From the IMG/VR virus record IMGVR_UViG_3300032242_001941, positions 32,001 through 96,000 of that record: a stretch of 64,000 bases of DNA, one strand, 5' to 3'. The notes beneath the pieces were generated by a model. The model searched no databases, was not told where the DNA came from, and saw only the letters and a program-made list of their open reading frames with translations. A program made the translations under genes and the position numbers. This stretch comes from a virus. Shown one piece after another: positions 3 through 32,229 of this stretch. The stretch's first letter is position 1. Each line of letters begins with the position of its first letter.

Positions 3-2159
3 CAAGAGATTGATGGCATTACACTCAGAGCCATTGTGGATCTTATTGATATAGAATCAAATCCAGACGTTGGGCACACTAATTACCAATATGTAGCAGG
101 CAAGCAACGCTTATCGATGTTGCGTAAAGATGTCTACGGCAACTACGAAGTTCCACACTTGTATGAAATTGTAAAGAAAAACGTGGCCACGGGTCTTTAT
201 ACAGCAGAACTTCTTGAGTGGTACACTGAAGAAGACTGGAACCGAATGAATGAGATGCTGGACCACGACAAGGACGAGTTGTATTCATATGCCGCGATTG
301 AACAACTGATCGAAAAGTATTTGGTACGCAATCGTGCCACAAAGGAAATATATGAAACTCCCCAAATTCGTTATATCATTGCAGCCGCGACTGTGTTCCA
401 TAAGGAAGAACCTAATGCAGCCCGCATGCGTTACATCAAAGAGTATTATAATTGTGCTAGTGATGGCCTGTTTACTCTTGCGACTCCTGTTCTGGCTGGA
501 CTGGGAACACCAACAAAGCAATTTAGCAGTTGTGTGCTTATACGTAGTGATGACAATCTGGATAGTATTTTTGCCTCAGGGGAAATGATGGCCAAGTATG
601 CGGCCAAACGTGCCGGCATTGGGTTAGAGATTGGGCGTTTACGCCCACTTGGTGCTCCCATTCGTGGTGGCGAAGTTATGCACACAGGAATGATTCCATT
701 TTTAAAGAAATGGTTTGGAGATTTAAGAAGTTGTTCACAAGGAGGTATCCGCAATGCAAGTGCTACCGTATTTTATCCTATTTGGCACTATCAGTTTGAT
801 GATCTTATTGTGCTTAAAAATAACCAGGGAACTGAAGAAACACGAGTAAGATTTATGGACTATGGCGTTGTTCTTAATGCCTTATTTTGGCGTCGTTTCA
901 AGAATAAAGAAACGATTACTTTCTTTGATCCTAACGAAGTTCCAGACTTGTATGAAGCTTTTTACAAGAATACTGAATTATTTGAAGAGCTTTATGTAAA
1001 ATATGAAAAGCGTAAGGACTTACGCAAAAAAGTAATGAACGCCGAAGATGTATTCAAAGGCGGCATATTAAAAGAGCGCACTGACACAGGACGTATCTAC
1101 CTTGTGTTTATTGACAATGTTCAGAGTCAAGGTCCATTTGATCCTGAATTCCATACCATTTATCAGAGTAACTTGTGCTGTGAAATTCTATTACCTACTA
1201 AGTCTTTTAAGCGTCTCGATGATGATGCTGGTCGTATTGCGTTATGCACTCTGGGAAGTATTAACTGGGGAGCATTCCGCAATCCTGAAGATATGCGTCG
1301 TGCTTGCCGCATCCTACAGCGTAGTCTTTGTAATATACTTGACTACCAAGATTTTCTTTCTATTCAGTCACAGTTAAGCAATCAGGAAATACAGCCCTTG
1401 GGTATTGGCATTACTAATCTGGCTTATTGGCATGCCAAGCGCGGTCTACAGTACGGCGAGCGAGATGCCTTACAAGAAGTTAAGTCATGGATGGAGCATC
1501 AGGCCTACTACTTGACAGAAGCAACAGTAGAGCTTGCTAAAGAGCGTGGACCCTGTAGTCATAGTGGCCTAACACGTTATGGCCAAGGTAAATTTCCTTG
1601 GGAGCTTCGTGCCCGGGCCGTTGACGAGCTGGCAAACTTTAAACCCGAACTAGATTGGGAAACACTTCGTGAGAAAATGAAAACCTATGGTGTTCGCAAT
1701 GCTACCTTGATGGCTGTAGCGCCTGTTGAAAGTAGTAGTGTTGTAATTAACAGCACCAACGGTATTGAAATGCCCATGAGCCTGATTACCGTTAAAGAAT
1801 CAAAAGCTGGGTCGTTAATTCAAGTTGCACCAGAGTACAACAAGTTAAAGAATAAGTATCAGTTAATGTGGGAACAAAAAGATTGTGATGGTTACATTAA
1901 AACAGCGGCGGTTATCGCGGCTTATGTAGATCAAAGTATTAGTACTAACACGTTTTATAATCCAGCACACTTTAGTGACCGTAAAGTGCCTACTACCCTG
2001 ATTGCCAAGAACTTGATGCAGGCACATCGTTGGGGTCTTAAGACGTTTTATTATAGCCTCATAAACAAGCAAGGCAGTAAAGGTCAAGATGAACCAGAAA
2101 CAAAGCTAGAAGTAGTAGACTTTGATGATCAAGAAGATTGTGAAAGTTGCAAACTTTAA
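3..2159 (+). CDS. nrdA: Ribonucleoside-diphosphate reductase class Ia alpha subunit (5' truncated by window edge)
   Basis: TPTKQFSSCVL, QSNLCCEI and APVESSS motifs, C-terminal CESC; frame is open from base 3. Confidence 0.97.
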   Translation, partial: QEIDGITLRAIVDLIDIESNPDVGHTNYQYVAGKQRLSMLRKDVYGNYEVPHLYEIVKKNVATGLYTAELLEWYTEEDWNRMNEMLDHDKDELYSYAAIEQLIEKYLVRNRATKEIYETPQIRYIIAAATVFHKEEPNAARMRYIKEYYNCASDGLFTLATPVLAGLGTPTKQFSSCVLIRSDDNLDSIFASGEMMAKYAAKRAGIGLEIGRLRPLGAPIRGGEVMHTGMIPFLKKWFGDLRSCSQGGIRNASATVFYPIWHYQFDDLIVLKNNQGTEETRVRFMDYGVVLNALFWRRFKNKETITFFDPNEVPDLYEAFYKNTELFEELYVKYEKRKDLRKKVMNAEDVFKGGILKERTDTGRIYLVFIDNVQSQGPFDPEFHTIYQSNLCCEILLPTKSFKRLDDDAGRIALCTLGSINWGAFRNPEDMRRACRILQRSLCNILDYQDFLSIQSQLSNQEIQPLGIGITNLAYWHAKRGLQYGERDALQEVKSWMEHQAYYLTEATVELAKERGPCSHSGLTRYGQGKFPWELRARAVDELANFKPELDWETLREKMKTYGVRNATLMAVAPVESSSVVINSTNGIEMPMSLITVKESKAGSLIQVAPEYNKLKNKYQLMWEQKDCDGYIKTAAVIAAYVDQSISTNTFYNPAHFSDRKVPTTLIAKNLMQAHRWGLKTFYYSLINKQGSKGQDEPETKLEVVDFDDQEDCESCKL

Positions 2160-2171
2160 TAAAGGAAAAAT

Positions 2172-2510
2172 ATGAAATTCAAATTACTTATTGTGCTGGC
2201 TTTTCTAATCCCAGCATTTGGATTTGCACAGAGCACACAAAACAACGGTAAGGCCGCTGTAAAAGACAATGGCAACACCAGCCTCCGCGGCTCGTATGGC
2301 AATACCGATCTACAAGGCTCCTATGGCAACACTGATATCAAAGGATCCTATGGTAATACTGATCTACAAGGATCATATGGTAATACCGATATCAAGGGCT
2401 CCTATGGCAATACTACTAATACCGTCAGCGTCGGCGGTAATGGAAATAACGGCAATGCACCAACAAAGATAATAATCAATCTTACCATCGAGATGCCGGC
2501 TACCAAATAA
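2172..2510 (+). CDS. Secreted small protein with tandem GSYGNTD(L/I)(Q/K) repeats
   Basis: Sec signal MKFKLLIVLAFLIPAFGFA; AAGGA RBS; repeats conserved at amino-acid level despite synonymous changes. Confidence 0.75.
   Translation: MKFKLLIVLAFLIPAFGFAQSTQNNGKAAVKDNGNTSLRGSYGNTDLQGSYGNTDIKGSYGNTDLQGSYGNTDIKGSYGNTTNTVSVGGNGNNGNAPTKIIINLTIEMPATK
2289..2414 (+). repeat. 27-bp coding tandem repeat (about 4.7 copies)
   Basis: Units GGNTCNTATGGYAAYACYGAT start at 2289, 2316, 2343, 2370 and 2397. Confidence 0.9.
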
Positions 2511-2623
2511 AATCGAAAGAAAACAAAATGATTAAAAATATATTACTGGAGAGTATTAAAAGAAACCGCTATACACAATAGAAATGTATGGAATGATGTA
2601 ACACTAACAAAAGAAGATCGATT

Positions 2624-3724
2624 ATGAGCCAAGCACAATACAACTTAAAAACAAAAACAGACTACCTGCATCGCAAGATGTTCTTGGACCCGGCAGGTCC
2701 TGTTACTATCCAACGCTTTGAAGAAGTCAAATACAACAAGATTGTCAAGTTTGAACAAGAAGCTCGTGGATTCTTCTGGGTACCAGAAGAGATCAGTTTA
2801 ACCAAAGATGCCAACGACTTCAAAGAAGCCACAGATACAGTGCGTCATATCTTTACCAGTAACCTGCTACGCCAAACTGCATTGGACAGTTTACAAGGTC
2901 GTGGTCCCACACAAGTGTTTACACCAGTGTGCTCAATTCCCGAACTTGAATCACTCATGTTCAACTGGGGTTTTTTTGAAACCAATATCCACAGTCGCAG
3001 TTACAGTCATATCATCCGCAATATTTACAACGTGCCCAAGGATGCGTTCAACACAATCCACGACACTAAAGAAATAGTCGAAATGGCATCAACTGTGGGC
3101 AACTACTACGACGAACTACACCGAGTTAACTGCCGTAAAGAATTAGGCGAAACAGTGACCGAGGAAGAACACATCCGTGCTATCTGGATGGCCTTGCATG
3201 CTAGTTATGCACTAGAAGCATTCCGCTTTATGGTTAGCTTTGCTACAAGTCTTGCAATGGTAGAGAATCGTATCTTTATTGGTAACGGCAACATTATCAG
3301 TCTAATCCTGCAGGATGAAATCTTACACAAGGACTGGACCGCCTGGATAATTAACCAAGTGGTCAAGGAAGATTCACGTTTTGCCCAAACTCGTGTTGAT
3401 TGCGAAGCAGAAGTATACGCATTGTATATGGATGTTATTCGTGAAGAAAAACAATGGGCCGATTACCTATTCAACAAAGGACCTGTGATTGGTCTCAATG
3501 CCAACATTCTTAAAGACTTTGTTGACTACACAGCAGTAGGCGCACTCAAAGAAGTGGGTATCAAGTATCAAACTCCTGCTCCTAAGACAACACCTATTCC
3601 ATGGTTCAACAAGCACGTTAACACATCAAACAAACAAACTGCACTGCAAGAGTCTGAATCGACTAATTATGTTATAGGCGCAATGAGTGATTTGTTAGAC
3701 TACGACGCATTACCCGACTTATAA
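2624..3724 (+). CDS. nrdB: Ribonucleotide reductase class Ia beta subunit
   Basis: FFWVPEE, ETNIHSRSY, LEAFRF and QDEILH di-iron motifs; C-terminal QE..STNY. Confidence 0.97.
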   Translation: MSQAQYNLKTKTDYLHRKMFLDPAGPVTIQRFEEVKYNKIVKFEQEARGFFWVPEEISLTKDANDFKEATDTVRHIFTSNLLRQTALDSLQGRGPTQVFTPVCSIPELESLMFNWGFFETNIHSRSYSHIIRNIYNVPKDAFNTIHDTKEIVEMASTVGNYYDELHRVNCRKELGETVTEEEHIRAIWMALHASYALEAFRFMVSFATSLAMVENRIFIGNGNIISLILQDEILHKDWTAWIINQVVKEDSRFAQTRVDCEAEVYALYMDVIREEKQWADYLFNKGPVIGLNANILKDFVDYTAVGALKEVGIKYQTPAPKTTPIPWFNKHVNTSNKQTALQESESTNYVIGAMSDLLDYDALPDL

Positions 3725-18711: not shown

Positions 18712-18787
18712 TATAAATAATAGTGTGGATGCCGATGGTCGGGTCCACACTATATGTCACTTGCTTAATTTAAAGGAGAAAACAATG
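18712..18787 (+). promoter_or_regulatory. TATAAATA late-type promoter plus ROSE-like structured leader (copy 2)
   Basis: Stem ATAGTGTGGA/TCCACACTAT enclosing TGCC...GGG; CTTGCTT...AAGGAG. Confidence 0.65.
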
Positions 18788-19231
18788 ACAAGACTCACAA
18801 CTCTGGACCTTAGTCCATTCTATCGTAACTCAATCGGTGTAGACAAATTATTTGATCGTATGATGCATCAAATTGATACAGCGGCCGCATCAACTACAAA
18901 CTATCCACCTTACAACATTGTAAAAACTGGCGAGAACACCTACGAAATTCAAGTAGCCGTTGCTGGATTTACCGAAGGTGAAGTTACTGTAAACGTCAAT
19001 GAAGGTCAATTAATCATCTCAGGTGAAAAGCTGTCTACAGATTTGCCCGAAGGACACATATATGAACACCAAGGCATCAGTGCTCGTCGTTTTATACGCA
19101 CATTTACCTTGGCCGACTATGTAGAAGTAACCGATGCTCAAAGTCAGGATGGTATTCTGACTGTTAGCTTAGAGCGTCAAGTTCCTGAGGCACTTCTGCC
19201 GAAGACTATTGCGATCACTTACACAAAATAG
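18785..19231 (+). CDS. Small heat-shock protein (Hsp20/IbpA-like)
   Basis: NYPPYNI, AVAGF, HQGISARRF.R.F.LADY, DGIL. Confidence 0.95.
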   Translation: MTRLTTLDLSPFYRNSIGVDKLFDRMMHQIDTAAASTTNYPPYNIVKTGENTYEIQVAVAGFTEGEVTVNVNEGQLIISGEKLSTDLPEGHIYEHQGISARRFIRTFTLADYVEVTDAQSQDGILTVSLERQVPEALLPKTIAITYTK

Positions 19232-19290
19232 TATAATATAGTAAATACAGTGGAGGGCACAGTGCTCTCCACTACAATAAAGGATTGGAT

Positions 19291-19599
19291 ATGTCACAAG
19301 CAGGAACTGTAACAAAAACACAAATTAATCAAGGTCTTGCCGAACCTCCTATGTTTAAAATTATCTATCTTAATGATAATGCCACACCAATGGAATTTGT
19401 AATTGATACGTTAATGGATTCATTTAATTATAGTTCAGAAACAGCTGAAAAAATTACCATGGACATTCACGAAGCCGGAAGTGCTGTGGTTGCTGTATTG
19501 CCTTATGAAATTGCCGAACAAAAAGGTATTGAAGTTACAGTGCAAGCCCGAAACAACAACTATCCTTTACAAGTCAAGCTAGAACCCGAAACAATTTAA
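19291..19599 (+). CDS. clpS: Clp protease adaptor ClpS
   Basis: PPMFKIIYLNDNATPMEFV, IH..G.AVV, YEIAEQK, YPL. Confidence 0.93.
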   Translation: MSQAGTVTKTQINQGLAEPPMFKIIYLNDNATPMEFVIDTLMDSFNYSSETAEKITMDIHEAGSAVVAVLPYEIAEQKGIEVTVQARNNNYPLQVKLEPETI

Positions 19600-20387
19600 A
19601 AGTCAATTTCAATTCGACGAGGATAAAACACTCGCTGACACCAGTCGGTGTTGCCACGTCCCCTAGGATTGGAAATATATCTTATTCCTCCTAGGTTTTG
19701 ATCTACAGGCCTGTGATAGTGTCCAAAGCACCAGGTATGAATTTTTTGTTCAGTATCCTCGTCAATGGTGCGAGAAATATGACTGTTCCCCATGCCGTTA
19801 AATCTCCAGGTGTTGGCCAGATCAGGATCGTGTGCAATAACCCATGGTGCAGGAACGGTGTGACTAACCACAACAATGGCACCCACTTCCATATGGGTTT
19901 GTAATTTACGAACACTGTTCATCATATAAGATGCATCGTTGTAGGCCACGCCCATGATGTTTGTGGCGGTTGAATTATCAATACCAAAATGATCTTGTGT
20001 ATGTTGTATGCTAGCATCTACGCTTATGCTAGAATCAAAATCGTAGGTCCACCAAGCGTTGGTACCTAACAGAGCTACTCCGTTGACTATGATCACATTA
20101 TCCTGCATATAAACCACATTTTTTATAGATTTGATATCTTTAGCAAGGGCTCGATAACTAGCACCCAAATCGTCAAGATAATCTTTATGTTCTTCGTTAC
20201 CGTCGATATAAAAAACACCTCCAGGATAACATTGACCAAGGTGAGCCAGGGTGTCTAATAAACGTTGCCGGTCACGGGCTACATCACCGGCTACTACACA
20301 GTAAGGAGCCGTGGCTTGACTAGACCAATCAAAGTCGTTCCAAGTTTCAACGTGGAGGTCAGAAATTAAATCAAAAGCAAAAGTCAT
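19596..20387 (-). CDS. Calcineurin-like metallophosphoesterase
   Basis: SDLH, AGD, GNEEH, SHTVP, FGHYH and SNPRG motifs. Confidence 0.88.
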   Translation of the reverse strand: MTFAFDLISDLHVETWNDFDWSSQATAPYCVVAGDVARDRQRLLDTLAHLGQCYPGGVFYIDGNEEHKDYLDDLGASYRALAKDIKSIKNVVYMQDNVIIVNGVALLGTNAWWTYDFDSSISVDASIQHTQDHFGIDNSTATNIMGVAYNDASYMMNSVRKLQTHMEVGAIVVVSHTVPAPWVIAHDPDLANTWRFNGMGNSHISRTIDEDTEQKIHTWCFGHYHRPVDQNLGGIRYISNPRGRGNTDWCQRVFYPRRIEIDF

Positions 20388-20411
20388 GATAACTATTTAC
20401 AAGGATCGCAT

Positions 20412-20762
20412 ATGAACATAATATTTAAAACCAATGCAACAAATATAGATGAAAAATATACAGTTTTAGACTTAGATACCTTTAGTTTACCTGACGGATC
20501 TTTACATACTGCCTGTTGTGTAGTTGAAAACATACCCGTTGCTGAATTTCCAATAATCACCCGGTTAAAAGAATTACACGTTAATCTTATAAGTAATTAT
20601 GGTAAACGCAATTGGAACTATTGCGAACAGGCCATTGAGCAACTTATGGGCAAATGGGGAGGCGAAGTAGACTCATTTTATCAAGAGTTAAACGCCCGTA
20701 TACAAAAACTTAAAACCCAAAATTTAGACGATTCCTGGAGCCCTGTTATACCAAAAGCCTAA
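20412..20762 (+). CDS. Free-standing homologue of the C-terminal domain of the CHASE2 cyclase at 25640
   Basis: Aligns by eye: LMGKWGGEVDSFY...RIQKLKTQNLDDSW vs MKGTFGGQMDKYY...RCEFMKEQNLPDNW. Confidence 0.7.
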   Translation: MNIIFKTNATNIDEKYTVLDLDTFSLPDGSLHTACCVVENIPVAEFPIITRLKELHVNLISNYGKRNWNYCEQAIEQLMGKWGGEVDSFYQELNARIQKLKTQNLDDSWSPVIPKA

Positions 20763-22002: not shown

Positions 22003-22494
22003 ATGAAAAAAATAATAATAATAACTCTCTTAGCTTCTGCGCCTGCGTTTGTCACGGCTGCAGAACTACAACACTATTTTAGTAGCCCGGCCTTTAGCGG
22101 CGTTGGATACAGTAGCCATGTCTTGACTTTACAACAGCTAGAAACTCAACAAAAAGAAAAAAATAAATTGGCCGCAGATGCTATTGCAGCCAAAGCAGCC
22201 GCAGATGCTGCAAATACTCCACAGGCTAGATTTTTAGCCAACATTGAAAGTAGAGTCTATGCTCAACTAGCCAAACAAATTACCGATAGTTTGTTTGGTA
22301 CAGACGGTGTGCCTAGTTGTAAAGCAGTAAATCCTTACAGTCAGTGCGGATCTGTAAACATAGCGGGCAATGATATCACTTGGCGCCTGGGCGACCCAGC
22401 AAACGCCAGCGAAAAAGGCATGTTAGTAATCAACATTGCTGGTGCCACCGGCAACGTTCAAATGATGGTGCCATCTGGAACCTTTGCTTTTTAA
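22003..22494 (+). CDS. csgF: Curli assembly protein CsgF-like
   Basis: Signal peptide then ELQHYFSSPAFSG (cf. CsgF FQFRNPNFGG); F..NIESRVYAQLAKQI...LFG. Confidence 0.8.
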   Translation: MKKIIIITLLASAPAFVTAAELQHYFSSPAFSGVGYSSHVLTLQQLETQQKEKNKLAADAIAAKAAADAANTPQARFLANIESRVYAQLAKQITDSLFGTDGVPSCKAVNPYSQCGSVNIAGNDITWRLGDPANASEKGMLVINIAGATGNVQMMVPSGTFAF

Positions 22495-22503
22495 GAAAAA
22501 TAT

Positions 22504-23319
22504 ATGAAACATACCGTAATTTCCTTGCTTGCAATTGCTTTATTAGGTGGATGTGCCATTGGCAGTGGTATCCGCGAACAGCTGACAAACAAGCAGTTTG
22601 ACGAACCAGTGATAGAAAAAAGTATTGTATTAGCACAGCCAAAAAATCAACTAGCACCACCGGCAGATGGACCTATTGCTGTGGCTGTGTACGGATTCCA
22701 AGATAAAACAGGGCAACGCAAAAGTCAACTTGCTGTGGCCAGTTTAAGCAGTGCTGTAACACAAGGCGGCGAAAGTTACTTGATTAAAGCCTTACAAGAT
22801 GTAGGCGATGGCCGCTGGTTCACTGTGGTAGAAAGAGTTGGGCTAGACAACCTAATCAAAGAACGACAAATGATTCGCCAGGGTCGCGAACAGTATCAAG
22901 GACGTGATGCTAAACCGTTACCGCCAATGGTATTTGCCGGAATGATTGTGGAAGGTGCTATTGTGGGCTATGATTCAAATACTCTTACAGGTGGCGCCGG
23001 TATGCGTATCTTTGGTATTGGCGGCCAAACACAGTATCAAAGTGATACAGTCACGATTAGTTTGAGAACAGTCAGTGTTCTTACTGGAGAAGTATTGACC
23101 ACAGTTACAGTTACAAAAACTGTGTTGAGTTACATGGATAAATTTACAGTATTGAGATTTATCAATGACGGAACTAACTCCTTAGAATCAGAAATAGGAG
23201 GTAGTATAAACGAAAGTATTAACCGAGCAACAAGCGCAGCCATACAAGCCGCAGTGGTTGATACGATTCGTGAAGGTGCTCGTAAAGGACACTGGAATTT
23301 TAAAGAAGTAAAAAAATAA
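22504..23319 (+). CDS. csgG: Curli secretion channel CsgG-like outer-membrane lipoprotein
   Basis: Lipobox LLGG-C; VAVYGFQDKTGQRK, SSAVTQG, WFTVVERVGLDNLIKERQ, EGAIVGYDSN. Confidence 0.93.
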   Translation: MKHTVISLLAIALLGGCAIGSGIREQLTNKQFDEPVIEKSIVLAQPKNQLAPPADGPIAVAVYGFQDKTGQRKSQLAVASLSSAVTQGGESYLIKALQDVGDGRWFTVVERVGLDNLIKERQMIRQGREQYQGRDAKPLPPMVFAGMIVEGAIVGYDSNTLTGGAGMRIFGIGGQTQYQSDTVTISLRTVSVLTGEVLTTVTVTKTVLSYMDKFTVLRFINDGTNSLESEIGGSINESINRATSAAIQAAVVDTIREGARKGHWNFKEVKK

Positions 23320-23369
23320 CAATAAAAAATAGGAGCTTAGATTGGGGATAACCCAACTTTGAACAAACA

Positions 23370-24167
23370 ATGAAAACAAACAAATTAAATACAGCCTATA
23401 CAATATTTGCTGTGTTGGCATTTGTTTCATTAAATGCAGCCGCACAAAATGCGGCCACTGGACCTAACAAGGTTTACCTGGAACAGATTGGTAGCACTAA
23501 TACCATCACAGTTCAACAGGTTGGCGGCACTAACAATGTTGGCGGCACCGGCGGCAATGTAACAGTAGATACCAATGGCGTAACTACTTTTACACCCGAT
23601 GCCCCTGGCAGTACTAACTATGCTACAATCACGGGTGCTAACAATGTGGTTGGACTTAGTCAGACTGGTAGTAACAACACGGCTCAGTACAATATCACTG
23701 GCAGTAACAATACCTATAACAGTACTGTGGCTGGCAATAACAATCAAACTCGTTTGATCATGGGTGGTGCCAATGCCACAGCCAATTACAATACTGTAAC
23801 AGAAACAGTTACTGGCAGTAATAACTTGATATTACAAAACGTTCAAGGCAGTAATGTGGTCAGTGGTATTGGAATTGTTGGCAGTACCAACCAAGTGACT
23901 ACTGATTTATTAAGTAACCGCGGAAGTTCTAATATACAAATCACTGGCAGTACCAACGTGATCAATGCTGAACAGACGGGCGGTGCTGGTGCCAATGGGC
24001 ACATATTGATTAATAATGTGATAGGCGACTATAACAGTATTACCACCCAGCAACAGGGTTCTATTGATACAACAATCGATCTTAAGACCACAGGTAGTTT
24101 CAATACCGTCACGGTACGGTCCAGCGACTCGGCCATTGTCAATTCAAGAACTGCTGTAGCAAGGTAA
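23370..24167 (+). CDS. Secreted curlin-like beta-solenoid repeat protein
   Basis: Signal peptide; repeated Q.G..N / (I/V)TGS.N units; N/G/T-rich; immediately after csgG. Confidence 0.75.
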   Translation: MKTNKLNTAYTIFAVLAFVSLNAAAQNAATGPNKVYLEQIGSTNTITVQQVGGTNNVGGTGGNVTVDTNGVTTFTPDAPGSTNYATITGANNVVGLSQTGSNNTAQYNITGSNNTYNSTVAGNNNQTRLIMGGANATANYNTVTETVTGSNNLILQNVQGSNVVSGIGIVGSTNQVTTDLLSNRGSSNIQITGSTNVINAEQTGGAGANGHILINNVIGDYNSITTQQQGSIDTTIDLKTTGSFNTVTVRSSDSAIVNSRTAVAR

Positions 24168-24168
24168 T

Positions 24169-25269
24169 ATGCAGAAACTAATCACAGCCCTTTGCGTTAT
24201 GGTTGTATGTAACGCCTGGGCTGGCATTGGCACGGTTTCAGAACACAAAGGTACAGCCTGCGAGATCACACGAGACAAAAATAAATTATCTGGGCACAAA
24301 GATGCCATAGTTGAAAGTATGGACACATATACCACCGGTGCATGTGTCAGCAACATTACATTTAAAGATGACACAAAGGTTCGCATAACTGAGAACAGTC
24401 GCTTGCTTATTGATGATTTTGTATTTGATCCCAAGGCCAGCGATGCCGGCAAACTGGCTCTTAAAGTGAGCGCAGGCACTGTGCGCTATGCGTCGGGCCA
24501 GATTGCTAAAAATAGTCCACAAAAAGTAAATATTCAAACGCCAACAGCCACAGTGGCAGTTCGTGGTACTGATTTTACCATGACCGTTGACGAAGCTGGA
24601 CAAAGTCTGATAATGTTAATACCTAGTTGTAAAGATATCAACGAAGTTAAACAATATGAATTAGAAGAGAATAGATGCAAAGTTGGACGTATCGAAGTAA
24701 GCACTCTTGCTGGGTCAGTGGTCTTAGACCAAGCATTTGAAGCAACCTATGTTATGAGTGCTCTAATGGCACCAACTCCACCTATTGTTGTCAACACTGT
24801 TGAAAGTAAAATTAATAATAATCTTATTATTGTTAAACCTGTTGAAGTTCAACGAGCTATTAAAGAAGCAACAAAAACCAAACAAGAACAAGAACTTGAC
24901 GACATCGAAGCCGACGCGGCTCGACGACTAGCACAGGCTGTGGCCAAATCCGCCGAAGCCATTGAGGAAGCTCGTGTTTCCAAGTTTGTTGACCTTGCCA
25001 AACGGTCTGGGTGTAATTCTGCTACCAGTGTCTGTGTGATATGGGATAGACCGTCTGAAACAGAAATGATCAGTCGTGGACGTGGTATTGCATTCCGCCT
25101 AACAGAAAATGAGCATTATGCCGAAGTCAAGACACTTGGGTATGTATCCAACACCACAATTAACATTACACATAATGATATGCCATCATCGATCACTATC
25201 GGCGATGGCTCTCCTGGTGGAACTATTGTAACTATTAAACAAAACAATGGAGTATTAAAGTCTAAGTAG
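24169..25269 (+). CDS. Periplasmic FecR-domain protein
   Basis: Signal peptide; ITFKDDTKVRITENSRLLID, GTVRYASG, TPTATVAVRGTDF. Confidence 0.88.
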   Translation: MQKLITALCVMVVCNAWAGIGTVSEHKGTACEITRDKNKLSGHKDAIVESMDTYTTGACVSNITFKDDTKVRITENSRLLIDDFVFDPKASDAGKLALKVSAGTVRYASGQIAKNSPQKVNIQTPTATVAVRGTDFTMTVDEAGQSLIMLIPSCKDINEVKQYELEENRCKVGRIEVSTLAGSVVLDQAFEATYVMSALMAPTPPIVVNTVESKINNNLIIVKPVEVQRAIKEATKTKQEQELDDIEADAARRLAQAVAKSAEAIEEARVSKFVDLAKRSGCNSATSVCVIWDRPSETEMISRGRGIAFRLTENEHYAEVKTLGYVSNTTINITHNDMPSSITIGDGSPGGTIVTIKQNNGVLKSK

Positions 25270-25363
25270 CCCAAGAGTGTATACGTAGTTTATTTTTTAA
25301 TGGGCAGTACTTAAATACTATGCAGGCATATTATAACTATAACAAGCCGGCTACGCAGGATTT

Positions 25364-25393
25364 TATACCCACTTTACAGTGGGTATTTTTTTT
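25364..25393 (+). terminator. Intrinsic terminator
   Basis: ATACCCACT-TTAC-AGTGGGTAT followed by a T run. Confidence 0.75.
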
Positions 25394-25422
25394 GTTAAAT
25401 ACTAGTCATACCGGAGATACAA

Positions 25423-25647
25423 ATGACTGACTTTTTTAAACCCGATCCAAGAATTACTGACCCTGCACTAAGAGATTTAGAAAAAAAAGTGCATTGGCTT
25501 ATGTCACAAATTTATGCCGGAAGCTGGGCGCAGATGTGTAGTGATGCAGGGCTCGATTGTAATACCGTGTATAATACATTTCCAGATAATTTTGATATAA
25601 ACAATATTAGACCAGACGCAGAAGAAGTTCAAAATAACGATGCTTAA
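25423..25647 (+). CDS. Hypothetical protein
   Basis: GGAG RBS; overlaps the cyclase start; TAAATA upstream. Confidence 0.6.
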   Translation: MTDFFKPDPRITDPALRDLEKKVHWLMSQIYAGSWAQMCSDAGLDCNTVYNTFPDNFDINNIRPDAEEVQNNDA

Positions 25648-27691
25648 AAAAATCTTAACAAGTCCGTGGACTGCTCTATTGACGCTGGCCTTAGTAGTGG
25701 GGTTACGGGTAGCAGACCCTACATTTGTTGAAAGCGTTCGTCTACGCTATTTTGATACGCTTATAACTAGTAAGCCTGCAGAAGTTATAGGTGTTAGTGT
25801 TGTAAACATTGATGAAAAGGCATTAGAAAAATATGGACAATTTCCTTTCTCCCGCGATCAGTACGCTGCCATCGTCCGGGATTTATATCGCCGCAATGCT
25901 GGTCTTGTTGTTTTTAACATCCTTACTCCTGATCGCGATCGCATGGGGCATGATGCAGAATACATCCAAGCCCTTCGCCAGTATCCAACAATTCTCCCTA
26001 ACATTGGGTCGCAAACTTCTCGTAATACTCCAAAAGCTCCTGGCTCAGTAGTCATAGGCCCATTTGGTCTAGATGCCTTTGTTACCTATCCTGGTATTAT
26101 TGCTAACCAACCTGCTATTGAAAATGCCGCAGTCGGTGTTGGTATTGTAAATACCTTGCCAGAAGTAGACGGTGTCGTTCGTCGCATGCCAATGGTAGTA
26201 GCATATGATGGCAAGTTGTACCCGAGCCTTGCTATGGAAACACTTCGAGTAGCTGGCGCCGACACCACTTTCCAAGTGAAGATCAACGAAACAGGCGTTG
26301 AGAAAATGCGCATTCCAAAGTTTGGAGCTATTACAACAGATTCATTGAGCCGTATTTGGGTTGACTGGTCACTGGTACCAAGTAAATATGGTTTAACGGA
26401 CTTGCCAAAAGATTTTGAAGGTGAAATTGTTATTGTTGGTGTATCAGCACAAGGACTTGCAAACCCTGTAGCTACAAGCCTTGGCGAAATGCTACCACAA
26501 GATTTACAAGCAAGTGTATTGGGTACTGTAATTGCCAATAGAGATCGTCCGGCAATTACTCGCCCAGATTGGGCCGATGGTGCAGAAATTGTATTTGTCG
26601 TTACGGCAGGTATTGTATTGTTATTTTTATCAAGGTGGGTTTATGTTGGACTTTGTTCATCTGTTTTTATACTCGGCGGGAGTATATTGCTGTCTCGTTG
26701 GGCTTATGGAAATTACGCTTGGCTTGTGGACGCGACTATTCCAGTCGTTGGCCTTGGCCTTGTGCTTCTTCATGCTTATGGTGTTAAGTTCGTAAGTGAG
26801 TTTTTACAAAAGCAAGCAATCAAGAAACAGTTTGCTGGCTACTGCTCCAAAGAAGTAGTGGAGCTATTGCAAAAAGATCCAGACCTAATCAAACGCGGTG
26901 TGCGCAAAGATGTCAGTGTCATGTTCTCAGACCTACGTGGCTTTACTCCTATCGGTGAACACTATGGTGATGATGTTGCTGGACTTGGAAAATATATGAA
27001 CGGTTATATGGATAGCATTAGTTGTCCTATTCTAGATAACAAAGGTATGATTATTAAGTATGTAGGTGATGCATCGATGCACATACACGGCGCTCCTATT
27101 GAAGATCCTAATCACGCACATACTATTGTTAAGGTAGGACTTGAGATGTTAGATGCTGTGGATGAATACACTAAACTAATGGAAGCACAAGGATTACCTC
27201 CTGCCGCAATGGGTTGGGGTTGTAACTCAGGTATTGGCTTTATTGGTGAAATGGGAAGCACAGATAGACACAGCTATGACATCTTAGGTGACATGGTTTC
27301 AACAGCTGCACGACTAGAAGCACGTTGTAAGGCCTATGGTGTGTTATGTATTATTGGTGCTGAAACATACAATAGAACTCGAGACGATTTCTTTTACTTG
27401 TTACTAGACAACTTGCAACCAAAAGGCAAAACAGTAGCAGACTTAATCTATACAGTATTACGTACTAAAGGTGTAGACTACAGTAAAGATAAGGCACAAC
27501 ACGAAAAAATGCATGACTTGTACCGAGCTAAAAAGTTTGATGAAGCCGCCGCTATGTGTACTAAAATGAAAGGCACCTTTGGCGGGCAGATGGACAAGTA
27601 CTACAAGATATGGATTGAACGTTGCGAGTTTATGAAAGAACAAAATTTACCAGATAACTGGAATGGCGAATTTGTGGCACACGAAAAATAG
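25640..27691 (+). CDS. CHASE2-domain class III adenylate/guanylate cyclase
   Basis: N-terminal TM; VNIDEKAL..YGQFPF.R and DGVVRRMP (CHASE2); three TMs; MFSDLRGFT, KYVGDA, YDILGDMVSTAARLE. Confidence 0.95.
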   Translation: MLKKILTSPWTALLTLALVVGLRVADPTFVESVRLRYFDTLITSKPAEVIGVSVVNIDEKALEKYGQFPFSRDQYAAIVRDLYRRNAGLVVFNILTPDRDRMGHDAEYIQALRQYPTILPNIGSQTSRNTPKAPGSVVIGPFGLDAFVTYPGIIANQPAIENAAVGVGIVNTLPEVDGVVRRMPMVVAYDGKLYPSLAMETLRVAGADTTFQVKINETGVEKMRIPKFGAITTDSLSRIWVDWSLVPSKYGLTDLPKDFEGEIVIVGVSAQGLANPVATSLGEMLPQDLQASVLGTVIANRDRPAITRPDWADGAEIVFVVTAGIVLLFLSRWVYVGLCSSVFILGGSILLSRWAYGNYAWLVDATIPVVGLGLVLLHAYGVKFVSEFLQKQAIKKQFAGYCSKEVVELLQKDPDLIKRGVRKDVSVMFSDLRGFTPIGEHYGDDVAGLGKYMNGYMDSISCPILDNKGMIIKYVGDASMHIHGAPIEDPNHAHTIVKVGLEMLDAVDEYTKLMEAQGLPPAAMGWGCNSGIGFIGEMGSTDRHSYDILGDMVSTAARLEARCKAYGVLCIIGAETYNRTRDDFFYLLLDNLQPKGKTVADLIYTVLRTKGVDYSKDKAQHEKMHDLYRAKKFDEAAAMCTKMKGTFGGQMDKYYKIWIERCEFMKEQNLPDNWNGEFVAHEK

Positions 27692-31335: not shown

Positions 31336-32229
31336 ATGCCAAAAATTTTATACATAATCGAGCCAACAGTTGATTTTAACCTGACTGAACCAACATCTGT
31401 ACTGTTAACTCATTGCAACGACAAGTTAATACACGACAAGTATCATACATCTCTCGGCGATTTAACACGTCAAGAAATATGTTCTATTGTTGATCAATTT
31501 GATTCGATATCATTTGTTGAAAATGGATTTGATAAAAGTTCAACTATCTATAAAGAAACATTAATTTTGTTAAATTTTTTACAGCATCGTCATACTGTAG
31601 TAAATTTTACTAAAGATAATGTAATTAACTTTATCAATGACCAAGATCTTGTTCAGCGTCCTGACACGCCAGTATTATGGGTCTTTGGGTGCAGTCATAG
31701 TCATGGAGTTGGTCTAGACAGTTTTGAGCAATGCTACAGCAGTATAGTGAGTAAACAATTAAACTTACCATTAAAATCAATCACTCAACCTGGTAGTTCA
31801 TTGGGTTGGAGTTTCAGGCACATGATGCAGGCCAATATACGATCCGACGATTTAGTAATTTGGCAGTTGACTACGCCTGAAAGATTTACAAAAGCAGTAG
31901 ACTTTACCGGGAAATGCAAAGAGATATTGCTAAAAAATGCCAGTGTAGAAGAAGTTTTATTTTGGTCTGACTTGCAACTATTTTATAATCATGTAAATTA
32001 TTTAAACATTGGTTTAAAATTTCTTAGAAATTTAAAAGTAAAATCAATTATTACATCTCTTGATAATATGAGCGATCTTTATTATCAATGTTTATTGGAA
32101 TATACCAAGCATCCGGAGTATTGTTATCTTCCGGGATACAATGTTGATACCGGCAACGACAATACACATTTTGGACCATTGACCCATCAAAATTTGGCCA
32201 ATGGAATATTGAAGTTTTTATCAAATTAG
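31336..32229 (+). CDS. SGNH/GDSL-like domain protein
   Basis: VFGCSHSHG, PGSS and D.THFG motifs. Confidence 0.6.
   Translation: MPKILYIIEPTVDFNLTEPTSVLLTHCNDKLIHDKYHTSLGDLTRQEICSIVDQFDSISFVENGFDKSSTIYKETLILLNFLQHRHTVVNFTKDNVINFINDQDLVQRPDTPVLWVFGCSHSHGVGLDSFEQCYSSIVSKQLNLPLKSITQPGSSLGWSFRHMMQANIRSDDLVIWQLTTPERFTKAVDFTGKCKEILLKNASVEEVLFWSDLQLFYNHVNYLNIGLKFLRNLKVKSIITSLDNMSDLYYQCLLEYTKHPEYCYLPGYNVDTGNDNTHFGPLTHQNLANGILKFLSN

Follow-up and report, generated by a model that had tools for sequence, protein, structure and literature searches.

A free-standing homologue of the C-terminal module of CHASE2 cyclases in the gene backbone of freshwater jumbo phages

The CyaD1/CyaD2/CyaK class of S. meliloti consists of CHASE2-type class III adenylate/guanylate cyclases. 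In Synechocystis the CHASE2-linked guanylate cyclase Cya2 carries a C-terminal extension of 118 amino acids, which strongly stimulates the activity of the enzyme and affects its linker region (Etzl et al., 2018, PMC5995499). Apart from the report on this extension, we found in the literature no account of a role of the tail of CHASE2 cyclases. The subject of the present paper is a phage protein of 116 amino acids, P0001, which is homologous to the end of such cyclases. The Cya2 extension can be likened to it by its position behind the catalytic core; the extension acts in cis, whereas P0001 is a separate protein.

The DNA analysed, from here on the window, is a stretch of 64,000 nucleotides (positions 32,001 to 96,000 of IMG/VR record IMGVR_UViG_3300032242_001941). 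It is part of a viral record of 111.6 kb estimated to be 32% complete. Related records are 320-370 kb long, which indicates a jumbo-phage clade, and two of these have terminal repeats and are rated 100% complete. Both the metagenome contigs on which relatives were found and the sequencing runs with words in common with the stretch carry freshwater or lake labels.

The gene of P0001 lies at 20412..20762 on the plus strand. It opens at the first possible start codon, is bounded by stop codons and has its own ribosome-binding site, a Shine-Dalgarno-like AAGGA (20401..20405, plus strand) located 6 nt before the ATG; a gap of 24 nt separates its start from that of a divergent phosphoesterase gene. 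A scan for promoters and terminators around the gene gave nothing above chance. A word-indexed search returned 413 relatives at 90% clustering, nearly all of them exactly 116 amino acids long, and an exhaustive HMMER search of 1.84 billion representatives returned at least 256 clusters at 50% identity, almost all of 100-135 amino acids; the best 150 of the representatives found with HMMER are 64-134 amino acids long, with identities down to 29%. The median pairwise dN/dS is 0.22 in 102 gene pairs and is also 0.22 in the 71 pairs in which neither phage has a cyclase at the locus, both values being approximate because the dS values are high. The ORF is a real gene, under purifying selection with or without a phage cyclase. 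Its resemblance to the 3' end of another gene, together with the occurrence of orphan 3' remnants in at least one bacterial genome (see below), could be taken to mean that it is a decaying, functionless piece of a cyclase gene or a spurious ORF. This explanation is scarcely credible in view of the low dN/dS, the proper ribosome-binding site, the very confidently predicted fold and the hundreds of full-length homologues, whose length is constant; the conservation effectively refutes it.

Matches to described families were sought in several collections. P0001 had no Pfam match even at E 1, nor had any of 106 members of its family; it had no PHROG or NCBIfam match, and among the INPHARED phages it had no match by DNA or protein. 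A sequence-profile search of the PDB with the family gave chance-level matches only. The ESM Atlas returned the viral clusters of P0001 itself and one weak lead (score 0.87), a bacterial cluster of 131 amino acids in which 22% of the members have a Guanylate_cyc domain.

The relationship becomes apparent when P0001 is compared with the CHASE2 cyclase of the same phage. This class III cyclase (P0002; 25640..27691, plus strand) has 683 amino acids with the Pfam domains CHASE2 (residues 15-325) and Guanylate_cyc (residues 423-568), belongs to phrog_35576 and is part of a curli/FecR/cyclase cassette. Its residues 571-683 (27350..27691, plus strand) are the fused counterpart of P0001, as seen with HHalign and with tblastn, which in the phage's own record places the match of P0001 inside the cyclase. 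BLASTP aligns residues 53-109 of P0001 without gaps to residues 618-674 of P0002 (15 of 57 identical, 33.5 bits, E 1e-6). When 106 diverse small proteins were compared as a profile with the phage cyclase family, HHalign gave probabilities of 97-97.5% (E 6e-12 to 1e-10) over 105-106 columns, spanning residues 4-114 of P0001 and 571-678 of P0002. The C-terminal half of the small family carries a strong signal against the cyclase tail (98.1%, E 1.3e-13); the N-terminal half against the phage cyclase alone is weak (P 0.03-0.08), though its best match is collinear.

Searches in the other direction gave a consistent picture. Among longer proteins in a set of 5.8 billion, the small-family profile matched CHASE2+Guanylate_cyc proteins only (678-736 amino acids, E down to 8.7e-12). 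In two complete phage genomes it found exactly two matches, the small gene and the C-terminus of the cyclase. Seven residue pairs are near-invariant between P0001 and P0002: L19/L587, D22/D590, H56/H621, Y63/Y628, Y90/Y655, R96/R661 and W109/W674. The two proteins thus have a common module and fold at about 20-26% identity. A sequence-only reading of the window had aligned the ORF by eye, along its full length, with the end of the cyclase. HHalign (cyclase residues 571-678) bears this out, more strongly than stated and also against bacterial cyclases; the pairing of EKYTVLDLDTF with DDFFYLLLDNL is contained in the HHalign alignment, and BLASTP reproduces the second by-eye alignment (E 1e-6). 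That P0001 is a CHASE2-cyclase C-terminal module we regard as very nearly certain.

An observation on the phage cyclases themselves concerns a motif at 27287-27319 of the window (cyclase residues 550-560). The phage enzymes read G-D-x-V-S-T-x-A-R-L-E there, whereas the bacterial class III cyclases compared here read G-D-x-V-N-L-A-x-R-L-E at the matching motif. The canonical transition-state Asn is thus replaced by Ser (S554), which is nearly invariant in 15 phage cyclases.

P0001 consists of two parts. Residues 1-38 (20412..20525, plus strand) correspond to the last beta-alpha-beta-beta of the class III catalytic domain, as judged from the strands of the model, HHalign and an L-E-L-D motif. 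Alignments of solved class III cyclase domains with the phage cyclase end at residue approximately 606-613, so residues 1-38 of P0001 equal the final strands of the catalytic domain; in a related genome (G001) the matches of the small-family profile and of Pfam Guanylate_cyc have 38 codons in common. Residues 43-101 (20538..20714, plus strand) form a three-helix tail (helices 43-64, 68-78 and 87-101), recognised from the model and from a family-specific loop. Residues from about 43 to 116 are the counterpart of the helical cyclase tail, which is about 75 amino acids long, is not covered by a Pfam model and closes with a conserved stretch containing Trp.

The copy is without catalytic residues. 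P0001 holds only the equivalent of model positions from about 145 to 183 of the Guanylate_cyc domain (PF00211, approximately 180 residues); the metal-binding Asp pair, the substrate-specifying Lys/Asp and the transition-state Asn/Arg all precede its starting point. The VKGK loop is lost, and at the position of the phosphate-binding lysine, which is 100% K in cyclases, the small family has no conserved residue. There is no fusion to a CHASE2 sensor, to membrane helices or to a complete catalytic domain. That the protein lacks the catalytic core, as had been noticed from the sequence, therefore holds, there being no Pfam match and no KGK lysine. Its description as a C-terminal helical domain is right for the helical tail and wrong in making the protein purely helical, since residues 1-38 are strands of the catalytic domain. 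P0001 is a stand-alone homologue of the C-terminal module of the cyclase.

The tail helices also occur in another setting. In P0332, a metagenomic member of the family with 130 amino acids, a FeS_assembly_P domain (PF01883, residues 15-69, E 4.4e-15) replaces the N-terminal strands, and the tail helices behind it are 51% identical to residues 39-113 of P0001. P0332 is a domain swap that arose naturally or else a chimera produced by the assembly.

An AlphaFold2 model of P0001, computed from the alignment of 106 sequences, has a pLDDT of 94.7 and a pTM of 0.86, with predicted strands at residues 2-5, 17-25 and 31-38 followed by the three helices. Superposition, which had been named as a check on the by-eye alignment, was made with Foldseek against predicted viral structures: the P0001 model fits a predicted phage CHASE2 protein of 671 amino acids with a TM of 0.67 (query-normalised), an rmsd of 2.9 A over 115 columns and an E of 9.8e-5, and a phage cyclase-domain protein of 287 amino acids with a TM of 0.68, both sides being predicted in either case. 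The same search returned two members of the small family. Against the PDB, Foldseek found nothing at E <= 0.001 for the model, and in a wide search with VIA-align the matches were confined to generic helical or TPR-like arrangements, the best of them at Z 5-6 over about 60 residues. Z values of this size are usual for common helical arrangements, and neither P0001 nor the 106 family members have a TPR match in Pfam.

Species-representative bacterial genomes were scanned with the phage cyclase family, which found CHASE2 cyclases of Bradyrhizobium, Thalassospira, Roseovarius, Elusimicrobia and others. Their alignment with the phage cyclase extends to residue 678-683, at approximately 30% identity. 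Against the last 135 residues of 66 bacterial CHASE2 cyclases, HHalign gave the small family 99.7% (E 7.9e-26) over residues 1-114, and residues 2-41 of the small family alone still gave 95.7% (E 9.6e-9). In a Bradyrhizobium enzyme the Pfam domain ends at model position 180 of 183, and the last 78 residues are without a Pfam model. The bacterial tails have, as P0001 has, the LELD strand motif, the helix motif Y-(R)-x3-W, an R-I and a terminal D-W-x-G, with strands and helices in identical order. Unlike the bacterial enzymes, P0001 is free-standing, and it begins exactly at the third-from-last strand of the catalytic domain.

The module is common in bacteria. The small-family profile had one match per genome in five of five whole bacterial genomes, always at the end of a frame of 746-831 amino acids. 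The same profile matched 109 of 301 sampled genomes of the class containing the Bradyrhizobium genome and 93 of 251 (37%) of the order containing the Polynucleobacter genome, a tally that takes in genome G521 (flagged unpublished) as a single match. Nearly all class- and order-wide matches lie in open frames of about 740-970 amino acids.

A comparison of the small family with the tails of phage and bacterial cyclases shows which residues were kept. L19, L21, D22, Y63, W68, R96 and W109 agree with the consensus of the cyclases and have a conservation of 87% or more in the small family. In the three-way consensus, LELD, W68 and R-I are common to the small family and the bacterial cyclases, and H56 and the spacing (F/Y)Y-x5-R to the small family and the phage cyclase tails only. 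The loop G-x-W-x-G-E-x-D-S-F-Y is conserved most strongly in the small family and is absent from the bacterial tails. Because D22, H56, Y63, Y90, R96 and W109 hardly vary in either the small family or the phage cyclase tails, and because a possible phosphodiesterase-fold enzyme is encoded in the neighbourhood, one may ask whether the module uses these polar residues to bind a small ligand, a nucleotide or cyclic nucleotide, and serves as a sensor or sponge. The invariant residues are equally well explained as the core of the fold, however, the structural searches turned up none of the known nucleotide-binding folds, the KGK lysine with which the cyclase binds phosphate is missing and H56 is not conserved in bacterial tails. 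We consider ligand binding very improbable.

How the module became a gene of its own can be approached from a tree of the module. The small family forms one clade (SH-aLRT 95), the phage cyclase tails form another (100) and the remaining branches are bacterial tails. The small family is monophyletic and nested in neither cyclase group. The tree is unrooted, with three groups and no outgroup, so that the order of events is unreadable from it. The loop that is absent from bacterial tails points to neofunctionalisation. We infer that a cyclase 3' end was domesticated to give the phage gene, and that this happened some time ago.

Short frames found in one bacterial genome (G311) were considered as a bacterial stand-alone family and rejected. 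One is the tail of a frameshifted CHASE2 cyclase, located in another frame (1894-3459 and 3110-3370 of locus L179); the other is an orphan 3' remnant of 104 amino acids beside unrelated genes (L180, 3003-3317, minus strand). Together they show that such fragments arise by truncation. A stand-alone gene of the module was sought in approximately 550 bacterial genomes and none was found beyond remnants, a handful of other frames below 400 amino acids being left out of this count.

Gene order was compared at 85 distinct related loci; locus searches that started from two distant members of the family (P0372 and P0311) yielded 0 and 1 loci, respectively. The conserved order is Hsp20, ClpS, the phosphoesterase (minus strand), the small gene, a variable stretch, o174 and o307. 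The Hsp20 and ClpS genes (18785..19599, plus strand; Pfam HSP20 and ClpS) are upstream in nearly all loci. The phosphoesterase gene (19596..20387, minus strand) encodes a calcineurin-like metallophosphoesterase, assigned from a weak match to Pfam Metallophos_2 and from NCBIfam TIGR03729, "putative phosphoesterase" (E 3.5e-13, 49.5 bits, below the cut-off of 148). It is divergently adjacent to the small gene, at a distance of about 25 nt, in 50 of the 59 loci that extend far enough upstream, and it accompanies the small gene much more regularly than the cyclase does. In five loci without the phosphoesterase, ClpS ends 3 nt before the small gene, which suggests one operon. The small gene is a backbone gene in a clade of freshwater jumbo phages of approximately 320-370 kb.

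The cyclase gene is distributed differently. The genes for curli proteins (CsgF, CsgG), FecR and the cyclase form a cassette within the variable stretch; in the window the cassette lies 5 kb downstream of the small gene on the matching strand. Within the flanks covered (up to 10 kb), every cassette found is just downstream of the small gene. Of the 38 loci that span the whole interval between the small gene and o174/o307, three have a full cyclase, two near-identical ones a remnant of 68 amino acids and 33 none, a sample in which short contigs favour the class without the cassette. Of the loci whose downstream sequence reaches 9 kb or more, five have the cyclase and seven lack it. In G002, a genome of 320 kb and 93% complete, the small gene is present and no Guanylate_cyc domain was found anywhere. 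In the module tree, the phage cyclase tails and the small family are separate clades. The cyclase is encoded by an accessory gene and the small protein by a backbone gene.

The cassette CsgF-CsgG-FecR-CHASE2 cyclase (22003-27691 in the window; also in L003, L004, L009, L026 and L067) behaves as a mobile or losable unit. Its gene order varies between phages, and in L067 the cyclase is on the opposite strand. In L005 (6895-7098) and L006 (4012-4215) the cyclase is reduced to its initial 68 codons, 91% identical to those of the window and situated 855 nt downstream of a small gene that is itself intact; the cassette seems to have been lost there recently. Phages that lack the cassette have unrelated genes in the variable stretch. 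At one such locus (L061, 1014-3590) there are an ORF of 445 amino acids and one of 412 with an N-terminal GxGxxG-type dinucleotide-binding motif, and at another (L008, 10403-16999) a DUF4337 protein and several ORFans. The variable stretch after the small gene looks like a hotspot of accessory genes.

These distributions bear on the function first suggested for P0001, namely that of a dedicated trans-acting regulator, decoy or competitor of the phage's own CHASE2 cyclase, tuning the cAMP made by the cassette. The homology to the cyclase tail, the cassette 5 kb downstream on the matching strand, its place just downstream of the small gene wherever it was seen within the flanks of up to 10 kb, and H56 and (F/Y)Y-x5-R, which P0001 has in common with phage but not with bacterial tails, would all fit such a function. 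The cyclase is nevertheless missing from 33 of 38 fully covered loci and from seven of the 12 with long downstream sequence, no Guanylate_cyc domain is encoded in G002, the small gene is intact where the cyclase has decayed to 68 amino acids, and its dN/dS is the same in phages that lack the cassette. The distribution data thus disfavour a regulator of the phage's own cyclase, which is, in our judgement, improbable; with the cyclase in a minority of loci, it is not the whole story. Nor does the co-occurrence with the cyclase that the sequence-only reading had looked to in other phages apply to most loci. The same reading had taken the ORF to tie the region of the phosphoesterase and a pair of TM proteins to the curli-cyclase locus. 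The gene order does not support this: the phosphoesterase and the small gene are a backbone pair (50 of 59 loci), and the curli-cyclase genes are a neighbouring insert.

The same backbone could point away from cyclases altogether. The module may have been exapted as a small adaptor that has nothing to do with cyclases and works with the proteostasis set (ClpX, GroES/EL, Hsp20, ClpS) or with the phosphoesterase. The strict synteny of Hsp20, ClpS, phosphoesterase (where present) and small gene, with the phosphoesterase divergently adjacent in 50 of 59 loci, and the possible operon with ClpS in five would agree with this, as would the conserved loop that bacterial tails lack and the generic TPR-like structural matches of the helical part, a shape often used in protein binding. 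Synteny within a conserved phage backbone is weak evidence of function, however; P0001 is unlike any known chaperone or adaptor family, and it has kept all module-defining cyclase residues despite divergence to approximately 30% identity. Exaptation is the main alternative to the binding mimic proposed below and is given nearly equal weight, although on its own we hold it to be doubtful.

We propose that P0001 is a protein-binding mimic of the cyclase tail. The 3' end of a cyclase gene would have become an independent gene in the phage. Its product comprises the tail plus the strands against which the tail packs and would thus display the outer surface that the tail has in the intact cyclase. 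P0001 might then engage or titrate a partner of this surface in the CHASE2 cyclases of the host and, where present, of the phage, so that cyclic-nucleotide signalling in the infected cell would be modulated by a protein that itself makes no nucleotide. The presence of both tail and packing strands favours a mimic or decoy of a partner in trans over competition for an intramolecular contact. Against the mimic, the best-conserved neighbours, Hsp20, ClpS and the phosphoesterase, equally fit a function unrelated to cyclases. The mechanism is put forward tentatively. For the best explanation as a whole, which combines the homology, the domesticated 3' fragment and the protein-binding mimic, we estimate a probability of about 0.45.

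A viral precedent for the principle is K3L of poxviruses, a stand-alone homologue of part of eIF2-alpha, which acts as a decoy. Both K3L and P0001 are small and viral, and each reproduces one part of a cellular signalling protein but not its activity. The analogy is one of principle only: there is no relation in sequence or structure, and for P0001 the decoy action is only proposed.

The GroEL encoded by the phage (17072-18703 in the window) shares 80% identity with that of a Polynucleobacter species and 74-79% with those of other Burkholderiales, which hints at a host lineage of the Burkholderiales type. In the one Polynucleobacter genome examined, a tail-bearing cyclase was absent. In the order as a whole the tail module is common, which makes candidate targets in the likely host group plausible as far as genome sequences can indicate. 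P0001 might dock on host CHASE2 cyclases, or on a partner that binds their tail, and thereby switch host cAMP/cGMP signalling during infection; we rate this more specific proposal as possible but rather unlikely.

The comparison gives a firm evolutionary identity to a widespread jumbo-phage family that has so far been a "hypothetical protein" in every source. It also reveals, at the C-terminus of bacterial CHASE2 cyclases, a conserved module for which Pfam has no model and which is present in about one third of the sampled genomes of the class Alphaproteobacteria and the order Burkholderiales. Soluble, free-standing and well folding, the phage module would be a convenient reagent for structure determination, for fishing for partners and for tests in trans of an activation or restraint of the catalytic dimer by the tail. 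If P0001 acts on host cyclases, phages would have a new route for interfering with second-messenger signalling. If the proposed mimicry is true, P0001 would be the first phage-encoded decoy aimed at a bacterial nucleotide cyclase, and it would provide a handle on the function of the cyclase tail.
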